DNA of 64,000 nt from a virus (Duplodnaviria > Heunggongvirae > Uroviricota > Caudoviricetes): the IMG/VR virus record IMGVR_UViG_2778261510_000005. One strand, given 5' to 3'. This document shows positions 27,577 through 28,575 of this stretch, piece by piece. The position numbers and the translations under genes were made by a program. A model generated the notes under the pieces. That model was not told where the DNA came from. It did not search any database and saw only the letters and a list, made by a program, of their open reading frames with translations. How positions within the stretch are numbered: the stretch's first letter is position 1; every line of letters starts with the position of its first letter.

Positions 27577-28575
27577 TTATCCGTTACCTCGCGACGGTTT
27601 CTGGGTGATAAACGTATCAAGCATCTTTTCCGCGATTGCCGACCAGGTGTGACACTGGACCTTTTCAGCATTTTTCACGCGATCAACGCGAGCAATAACC
27701 TCATCCCAATCAATCCGCGACTTGATAACCATATGGTTCACCAAAGCCAGGCGATCCGGCGGAAGGCAATCGGGAGGCGTTAATACCAACGCCCCGCACG
27801 TTGCCGCCTCAAGAACAGTTAATCCAAGGCTTTCGGGATGCGTAACGATAAACACGTCACTCTTACGCAATTCAGCTGCAAATTCGGTTGCTGGTACCGG
27901 CGTCCGTCTGTATGGAGTTACCGATATATTCCCCGGATCAATGGTAATCAATCCGTCATCGGTCAACGTTCTGGCCTCATACGGAACGGTCAGACGCTGA
28001 AGGTTCATAAGGATACTTAAGGAGTGATCAAACCCACTAACATCAAATGCAGCGTGGTCTACAAAAATACGCAGAACATCGTCTGTTTTGGTTTCCAGAT
28101 GGAACAGATCCTGATTCGCTGCCCATCCAACATGTTTGTTAAAGCGATTATGACGCTCTAACCTGCCGGGATTATCCAGGTACCGCCAGGTATCATCGCG
28201 GACAGTAAAAGTAATATCGACTGGTGCCGAATCCAGCATAGAACCGTCGTATACCTGGGCTACCCATCCAGTGAATCGACGACGCAGTTGCACGCCTATT
28301 TCCCTGGGCACCGTAGTAAAATACCTCAATCCTGGTGCCAAAATGGCCTTCGCAGAACATGCGGTCGCAGCAGTCAACACAGCTTCAACATAATCCTCCG
28401 GGCTTTCGACGCCGGGGGAATATGGACGATGGTATTGCAATGTTACCCCTGCCTCACTAAAGGCGCAGGCTAGGTTATAAGCCCACATTTCCGTATATGT
28501 TTTCACATCACTGATAGCTTCAAATTTTCGCCCAATGATCAGGATGTTCATCGGCTTTTCCTCATTCCATTGCAT
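27577..28575 (-). CDS. Glycosyltransferase-like protein (GT-B/GT1-like C-terminal motif), 332 aa
   Basis: C-terminal ESLGLTVLEAATCGALVLTPP resembles the GT1 E-x7-E region; start overlaps the ban stop. Confidence 0.5.
   Translation of the reverse strand: MQWNEEKPMNILIIGRKFEAISDVKTYTEMWAYNLACAFSEAGVTLQYHRPYSPGVESPEDYVEAVLTAATACSAKAILAPGLRYFTTVPREIGVQLRRRFTGWVAQVYDGSMLDSAPVDITFTVRDDTWRYLDNPGRLERHNRFNKHVGWAANQDLFHLETKTDDVLRIFVDHAAFDVSGFDHSLSILMNLQRLTVPYEARTLTDDGLITIDPGNISVTPYRRTPVPATEFAAELRKSDVFIVTHPESLGLTVLEAATCGALVLTPPDCLPPDRLALVNHMVIKSRIDWDEVIARVDRVKNAEKVQCHTWSAIAEKMLDTFITQKPSRGNG

Follow-up and report, generated by a model that had tools for sequence, protein, structure and literature searches.

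What a glycosyltransferase-like gene is doing next to a replicative helicase gene is the question raised by the locus studied here. The locus lies in a 64,000-nucleotide stretch, below called the window, of the virus record IMGVR_UViG_2778261510_000005 (Caudoviricetes), where an open reading frame (ORF) adjoins ban, the gene for a DnaB-like helicase. The initial annotation took its product for a GT1-like glycosyltransferase co-transcribed with ban, considered the pairing odd, and named DNA, the virion and the host surface as possible targets. By sequence comparison the ORF is dbn of a P1-like phage-plasmid, and our analysis suggests that the partners of Dbn are PmgQ, PmgO and PmgP, not the Ban helicase. 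What is new comes from the genomic context, in which dbn, pmgO, pmgP and pmgQ look like dispersed parts of one glycosylation cassette, possibly acting on the P1 virion. The reading that we favour, evenly balanced in our own judgment, is that Dbn is one enzyme of a phage glycan-building cassette whose most likely targets are virion proteins.

27577..28575, minus strand: dbn, ORF of 332 amino acids (as annotated in P1), putative GT-B/GT4-like glycosyltransferase
28575..29945, minus strand: ban, DnaB-like replicative helicase, immediately upstream of dbn (sequence and P1 record)

Identity of dbn

The 1.3-kb stretch around dbn shows 96.4-97.8% DNA identity to Salmonella phage SJ46, RCS47, P1, P7 and other Punavirus records, and the 15-kb neighbourhood is 98.6% identical to RCS47; from this identity and the annotated P1-like matches we take the window to belong to a P1-like phage-plasmid. 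P1 Dbn (GenBank AAQ14048.1, "function unknown, possible glycosyltransferase"), P7 Glt (AAQ07543.1, gene glt, "putative glycosyltransferase") and the RCS47 protein (RefSeq YP_009624926.1, "glycosyltransferase family 4 protein") are products of the same gene at the same place after ban, convergent with gene 5, and the allele in the window diverges from theirs by a few percent. The comparison with the P1 gene adjoining ban, proposed in the initial annotation, leads to this very gene, so that the glycosyltransferase label is already in the databases and the finding in the window is a rediscovery of a catalogued gene. In PHROGs it is assigned to phrog_2518, "unknown function". The protein belongs to a 90%-identity cluster with 2431 member sequences, and the 21 distinct P1-like dbn alleles (191 pairs) have a median ratio of nonsynonymous to synonymous substitution rates (dN/dS) of 0.12, which means purifying selection. 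Screens by CRISPR interference and by knockout score dbn, pmgO, pmgP and pmgQ all as nonessential (PMC10695390), and single-gene knockouts of P1 have been described (PMC9024508). Our literature search found no functional study of dbn or of pmgO, pmgP and pmgQ, only essentiality tables and one mention in a transcriptome.

The P7 record AF503408.1 (L002, locus 4020..4200, minus strand) has TGA at dbn codon 31, where the window has TGG (GAAATGTGAGCT); P7 glt is therefore annotated as a shorter ORF, apart from ban. This TGA may be a true nonsense mutation of that P7 stock or else an error of sequencing.

Enzyme class of Dbn

In the profile search, Pfam Glycos_transf_1 (PF00534) matches Dbn residues 229-315 with E=1e-5, at 25.5 bits against a gathering cut-off of 26.4 bits, and the glycosyltransferase domain expected by the initial annotation is found just below that cut-off. 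Some Dbn relatives exceed it at 28-30 bits, and several close homologues carry precomputed Pfam tags. The C-terminal glutamate motif noticed earlier is an exact EX7E in the C-terminal Rossmann-like domain; calling it "GT1" is right only in Pfam naming, as the Pfam "group 1" is CAZy GT4 and not CAZy GT1.

27808..27834, minus strand: EX7E motif ESLGLTVLE (E248...E256) of Dbn (sequence, alignments A1 and A2, profile)

Both glutamates, E248 and E256, are invariant in family alignments of 19 (A1) and 56 (A2) sequences, the latter holding relatives 23-50% identical to its reference member, and so are D173-H174, H246, G251 and G261. A decayed pseudo-enzyme was considered and ruled out, as all invariant residues are retained and the dN/dS is 0.12. 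A search of the Protein Data Bank (PDB) sequences with Dbn alone gives noise only and the family profile is needed; the profile aligns the motif segment to the EX7E of 8xsg (E=9e-5), MshA 3c4q and PimA 2gej. An NCBIfam search of Dbn gives matches at noise level only.

The AlphaFold model built on the family alignment (predicted local distance difference test 88.7, predicted template modelling score 0.85) has the two Rossmann-like beta/alpha/beta domains with an inter-domain cleft that define GT-B. In structural comparison the model scores about 18 against GlgM, PimA, PimB' and WlaC, and 15-17 against WaaB, WaaG, T4 alpha-glucosyltransferase and the glycosyltransferase of phage HY126, and Foldseek concurs with the assignment to the GT-B/GT4 type. 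The nearest folds are retaining GT-B enzymes, mostly of CAZy GT4; in view of these folds and the GT4-type EX7E, the mechanism of Dbn is probably retaining. As far as sequence and predicted fold reach, Dbn has the glycosyltransferase fold on which the initial annotation had staked its reading, and it is a putative compact soluble GT-B glycosyltransferase of about 324 amino acids with a GT4-type EX7E. Fold and motif thus bear out that reading, which is not new, since the P1 and P7 GenBank records already carry it.

A glycosyltransferase cassette in other phages

Searched against 1.84 billion representatives, the family profile retrieves 381 at E<=1e-3 without drawing in the bulk of GT4, and by sequence the Dbn family is a distinct small clade, in which every sampled context is a phage or a prophage. 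Scanning viral contigs with the query from the window returned P1-like elements only, and a renewed query with a distant member gave the divergent loci; a profile scan of genome contigs gave only a Bradyrhizobium prophage, the taxonomic breadth of isolate genomes being poorly sampled. In this family, one protein (P0113) is a Dbn homologue fused to a class I methyltransferase domain, and three others (P0091, P0101 and P0109) are 520-630 amino acids long with extra unannotated domains.

The most telling locus is a lambdoid contig (L003), where a 55%-identical Dbn homologue lies in an unbroken five-gene run just upstream of the terminase gene.

L003 run, in order: DUF115-like, 179 amino acids; DUF115-like, 199 amino acids; GT-A-like, 189 amino acids; Dbn homologue, 317 amino acids; GT-A-like (PmgQ-like), 223 amino acids

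When the neighbours in this run are searched back against the window, they match at three places, which by the P1 record are pmgO, pmgP and pmgQ.

20979..21641, minus strand: pmgO, DUF115/MptE-like, sialyltransferase-like (phrog_4603, weak Pfam and profile matches, synteny)
21578..21045, minus strand: match of pmgO to an L003 neighbour, 39% identity
20455..21081, minus strand: pmgP, DUF115-like paralogue of pmgO (phrog_2111, weak MptE-like match, alignment A5, synteny)
21081..20470, minus strand: match of pmgP to an L003 neighbour, 54% identity
19101..19778, minus strand: pmgQ, GT8-like GT-A putative glycosyltransferase (phrog_1962, profile, synteny)
19778..19113, minus strand: match of pmgQ to an L003 neighbour, 47% identity

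These three genes are labelled "putative morphogenetic" in P1. PmgQ falls in phrog_1962, "glycosyltransferase" (E=7e-125), its family has an invariant DxD (YLDLDT) and GDQ, and the family profile matches, among the PDB sequences, Skp1 alpha-galactosyltransferase 6mw5 (E=1.5e-6), glycogenin (about 2e-3) and LgtC (0.08). PmgO falls in phrog_4603, "alpha-2,3-sialyltransferase" (E=4e-74), with Pfam MptE-like at E=4.7e-5, under the cut-off; the profile of PmgO and PmgP matches Cst-II (E about 3e-3) and the flagellin glycosyltransferase Maf 5mu5 (E=0.012), and the fold assignment of the two proteins rests on these weak profile matches only. Possibly, PmgO and PmgP are ulosonic-acid transferases using a donor such as CMP-Kdo. 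Together with dbn, the three genes look like a set of four glycosyltransferase-like genes in one P1-like genome.

With home-made hidden Markov models of the partner families mapped onto the divergent loci from viral contigs, metagenomes and protein look-ups, a PmgQ-like gene is found within about 2.5 kb of the Dbn homologue in 35 of the 37 non-P1 loci having enough flank, usually directly downstream of it and often overlapping; the two loci without one carry the most distant members of the family, at 28-30% identity. Frequent companions are PmgO/PmgP-like genes, further GT8-like genes and FkbM-type methyltransferases (Pfam Methyltransf_21), and in L088 (10960..12240) a fusion of PmgQ-like and PmgO-like parts directly follows Dbn. 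Two large phages carry an extra gene of mannose-phosphate isomerase/nucleotidyltransferase type, and one of them also a pyruvyl-transferase-like gene. The cassettes come from enterobacterial, Bradyrhizobium, Alsobacter, soil and marine phages.

The placement of the cassettes is consistent. In Bradyrhizobium and many soil prophage contigs (L161, L165, L091, L094, L168 and L170-L176) the cassette sits between sheath and tube genes, the order being terminase, portal, capsid, sheath, then PmgO-like, a 240-amino-acid protein, Dbn, PmgQ-like and methyltransferase, then tube. On a siphovirus backbone (L164 and L184) it follows an HK97-type capsid gene, and in L088, L166 and L188 a lambda-E-type capsid gene. 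L166 encodes within the cassette, after the capsid gene and before Dbn, a further protein of 719 amino acids (7227..9386), which carries SPRY, cadherin and laminin-G/ConA-like lectin domains; it may serve to decorate the capsid, to accept the glycan or to bind glycans.

P1-like elements, and likewise phage-plasmids of a second type (Citrobacter CP101055; L004, L005, L097 and L155), have the set in separate parts. On the minus strand of the window the order is ban-dbn, the inverted 26-25-7-24-6-5, then pmgL, pmgM, pmgN, pmgO, pmgP, ppp and pmgQ; ppp (19775..20473), which separates pmgP from pmgQ, encodes a lambda-type Ser/Thr phosphatase. The three partner genes lie 6-9 kb from dbn on the same strand, with the oppositely oriented tail/baseplate operon 26-25-7-24-6-5 between, and the window therefore falls outside the dbn-pmgQ proximity of about 2.5 kb set by the non-P1 cassettes.

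The target of the cassette

A phage-made acceptor is suggested by two facts: phages of very different hosts share one and the same cassette, and all the contexts sampled are phage. Since the cassettes adjoin capsid, sheath and tube genes, a virion protein is the most likely acceptor. Among the three targets named at the outset, the gene context in the relatives thus favours the virion; DNA and the host surface are weighed below. During lytic growth, Dbn would take a sugar from a host nucleotide-sugar and add it, with retention, to a growing oligosaccharide built by the cassette with PmgQ and PmgO/PmgP; the acceptor would be phage-made, most likely one or more structural proteins of the virion, and the modification would be dispensable for plaque formation in the laboratory. 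A broader statement, tentative and in our estimate somewhat short of even, is the joint claim that P1 and, scattered among the phages of Proteobacteria, other temperate or large ones add glycans to the proteins of their own virions (capsid, sheath or tube) by a dedicated portable cassette of Dbn (GT4-like), PmgQ (GT8-like), PmgO/PmgP and an optional FkbM methyltransferase.

Several points weigh against virion glycosylation. Concerning the enzyme, Dbn lies 0.9 bits under the Pfam Glycos_transf_1 cut-off, and the N-terminal GT4 domain of Pfam (Glyco_transf_4 or Glyco_trans_4_4) is absent from it even at E<=10; the glycine-rich N-terminal loop of GT4 is not present either, and the N-terminal half of the model is still Rossmann-like. 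Concerning the context, many cassette loci come from a few related prophage lineages, so that the counts overstate independence and correspond to about eight distinct architectures, and the markers for structural genes were built from the same lineages as the cassette loci; the association of the cassette with virion-morphogenesis blocks is consistent despite this non-independence. In P1, dbn sits in an early C1-controlled operon and not in a late structural one. The capsid, sheath and tube proteins flanking the cassettes show no Ser/Thr-rich or extended C-termini or other acceptor features. The literature searched holds no biochemical or genetic evidence for an activity or acceptor of Dbn, and a paper on the P1 virion proteome and a cryo-EM preprint on the P1 tail-baseplate mention no glycans. 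Finally, a mixture of GT4, GT8 and sialyl/Kdo-transferase-like enzymes is also used in the assembly of the lipopolysaccharide (LPS) core.

This last point leads to the host envelope. Dbn, PmgQ and PmgO/PmgP might extend the LPS core, or some other lipid-linked glycan at the inner membrane, with sugars, and so block superinfection or keep progeny from being lost on cell debris. The P1 receptor is indeed a core glucose, and the initial annotation had the host surface among its targets; but none of the sampled contexts is a bacterial core or O-antigen locus, all being phage or prophage. PmgQ is GT8-like with a weak match to LgtC, and the E. coli LPS-core transferases WaaO, WaaR and WaaJ are also GT8, while PmgO and PmgP weakly resemble the lipooligosaccharide sialyltransferase Cst-II; against these likenesses stands the presence of the same cassette across hosts with presumably unrelated LPS cores, which points to a phage-borne acceptor. 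WaaB and WaaG are structurally no more similar to Dbn than other GT4 enzymes are. Cassettes in late structural operons and in large phage genomes fit poorly to lysogenic conversion, and C1 operators are annotated on the P1 ban and pmg operons, which by this annotation should be off in lysogens. In addition, no flippase, polymerase or membrane protein was seen to accompany the cassette. We therefore judge remodelling of the host envelope to be unlikely. A Gtr-style lysogenic conversion of the O-antigen was also considered and is rejected, given the missing membrane components and the C1-repressed operons.

Phage DNA would be a universal acceptor, and such an acceptor would account for the conservation of the cassette from host to host. 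Dbn would then attach sugar to a modified base of P1 DNA, a hypermodification that would protect against restriction, an idea to which the position of dbn after a replication gene, the DNA methyltransferase gene dmt just upstream of the ban operon, and the GT-B fold common to Dbn and the phage DNA glycosyltransferases lend some colour. To our knowledge, P1 DNA has not been reported as hypermodified. Known DNA glycosylation in phages requires a pathway to hydroxylated or hydroxymethylated pyrimidines (PMC13326640), and a base-hydroxylating or hydroxymethylating gene is absent from the Pfam-annotated flanks of seven cassette loci and from the annotated stretches of P1 examined. Moreover, Dbn is less similar to the DNA glycosyltransferases than to GT4 enzymes, and DNA-modification modules do not typically lie among capsid, sheath and tube genes. 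Glycosylation of DNA is on these grounds improbable, more so than that of the envelope, and virion glycosylation is kept as the favoured reading.

The junction of ban and dbn

The place of dbn relative to ban needs correction. Since the two genes share the minus strand and ban (29945->28575) comes first, dbn is downstream of ban and not immediately upstream as first described; nor does it overlap the start of ban by one codon, for the annotated ATG of dbn (28575..28573) shares a single nucleotide with the TAA stop of ban (28577..28575), in TAATG. The minus strand reads ...GAG GAT TAT TAATG CAA TGG... at this junction.

28549..28551, minus strand: probable true start codon of dbn, Met9 (MNILIIG), with GAGGA 7 nt upstream (and homologue starts)

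In the family alignment, the counterpart of Met9 (MK/NILIIG) is the first residue of every homologue from beyond the P1 group. In the P1-like variants L079-L086 and L111, the eight codons before Met9 give way to an unrelated sequence, dbn begins at the Met9 counterpart behind an AAGGAG of its own, and ban and dbn are separated by a 101-amino-acid ORF (9699..10004 in L079). From the Met9 starts in the non-P1 homologues and the divergent upstream sequence in these variants, the conserved start of dbn is probably Met9, 24 nt downstream of the annotated ATG. The overlap with ban then probably lies outside the true coding sequence of dbn, and on comparison of these sequences it is a non-conserved feature.

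The same evidence bears on the idea that Dbn cooperates with the Ban helicase or the replisome, or has one of them as its target. The 1-nt overlap of stop and start and the shared operon, in the window as in P1, speak for such a replication-coupled role; but with a start at Met9 the overlap is not needed, some P1-like elements have the 101-amino-acid ORF in between, and Ban stands beside Dbn only in P1-like elements, with no such case among the non-P1 loci examined. The other backbones have no helicase neighbour, save unrelated DEAD-box genes several kb off in two large phages. We regard the role in replication as very improbable, and a functional coupling with the helicase is rejected for the variable junction and the lineage-restricted adjacency. 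The pairing that seemed meaningful at first looks like an accident of P1 genome arrangement, a trait of the P1 lineage and not a functional unit.

The co-transcription with ban proposed in the initial annotation fares better and is plausible, as the two ORFs abut, no convincing terminator is found between them, and the terminator comes only after dbn.

27529..27555, both strands: bidirectional hairpin terminator between the convergent gene 5 (baseplate hub) and dbn (RNA folding of both strands)

This hairpin has an 11-bp stem, folding energies of -21.1 and -20.3 kcal/mol (z -4.1 and -3.0) and a U-run after the stem on each strand, and transcription should end there. A consensus scan for promoters and terminators over ban-dbn gives nothing above chance; it misses the hairpin, which was found by folding. 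The ban operon of P1, an early operon repressed by C1, ends with dbn.

Neighbouring features

Upstream of ban, the operon leader of the window holds three tRNA genes on the minus strand, at 30225..30300 (Met-type, CAT anticodon), 31825..31900 (Thr, TGT) and 31903..31978 (Asn, GTT), in coordinate order; the first is annotated in P1 as tRNA-Ile2 "trnI". Between the tRNA cluster and ban, at 30328..31372 on the minus strand, are a 275-amino-acid SPFH/Band-7 protein (Pfam E=1e-30; a lipoprotein in RCS47) and a 78-amino-acid hydrophobic ORF, where P1 has tciA-tciB-tciC. In this the window goes with RCS47 and differs from P1, and the arrangement is common to RCS47 and some "P1" isolates. On the side of the partner genes, pmgM (21805..22383, minus strand) has a weak VRR-NUC match (E=3e-4, under the cut-off), and a pmgM homologue accompanies pmgO, pmgP and pmgQ in the Citrobacter-type phage-plasmids L004 and L155. 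At 13553..16669 on the plus strand, beside pap, lies the gene for a 1038-amino-acid type I restriction R subunit (HSDR_N, SWI2_SNF2, T1R_D3-like and EcoR124_C); a type I restriction-modification module appears to stand in this P1-like element where P1 has pmgT after pap.

Significance

As flagged at first, dbn matters little, for the GenBank records of P1 and P7 already give its label, and the gene is dispensable in the laboratory. If the cassette does act on virions, virion glycosylation would no longer be peculiar to mycobacteriophages; it would reach phages of Gram-negative hosts, among them one of the most thoroughly studied coliphages, and four P1 genes now called "putative morphogenetic" or unknown would gain a function. 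A phage-made glycan on P1 virions would bear on their immunogenicity and clearance, an issue raised for glycosylated mycobacteriophages, and on particle stability, adsorption and the use of P1 as a delivery vehicle.

Comparison with known systems

Compared with CAZy GT4 enzymes (BshA, MshA, PimA/PimB', GlgM, WaaG and sucrose-phosphate synthase), Dbn has only 9-15% identity, and its family is shorter, about 320 amino acids against about 360-400 in typical GT4. At the first strand of the C-terminal domain the Dbn family has an invariant D-H ("FVDHAAFD"), where typical GT4 enzymes have a phosphate-binding G-R...K-G. The T4-type DNA glucosyltransferases (AGT and BGT) and the HY126 glycosyltransferase resemble Dbn in being phage-encoded and of GT-B fold, with structural scores below those of GT4 enzymes; unlike in T4-type systems, no genes for base hydroxylation or hydroxymethylation accompany dbn in the flanks examined. 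The best match by predicted structure among viral proteins is a 315-amino-acid glycosyltransferase of Tupanvirus (E=1.3e-17, template modelling score 0.74-0.78), which has 17% identity to Dbn and comes from a different virus realm. Giant viruses of this kind (Tupanvirus and Mimiviridae) build the glycans of their virions with their own enzymes.

For tailed phages, virion glycosylation in mycobacteriophages was reportedly described by Freeman et al. in Cell Host Microbe in 2023, and outside the mycobacteriophages no report was found in the literature searched. Two papers citing this work describe mycobacteriophage glycosyltransferases as glycosylating capsid and tail-tube subunits (PMC12619734, PMC12582341). 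The cassettes here adjoin the genes for capsid, sheath and tube, that is, for structural proteins like those targeted in the mycobacteriophage systems. The hosts differ, being Proteobacteria for the cassette phages, and the likeness between the two lies in gene context.

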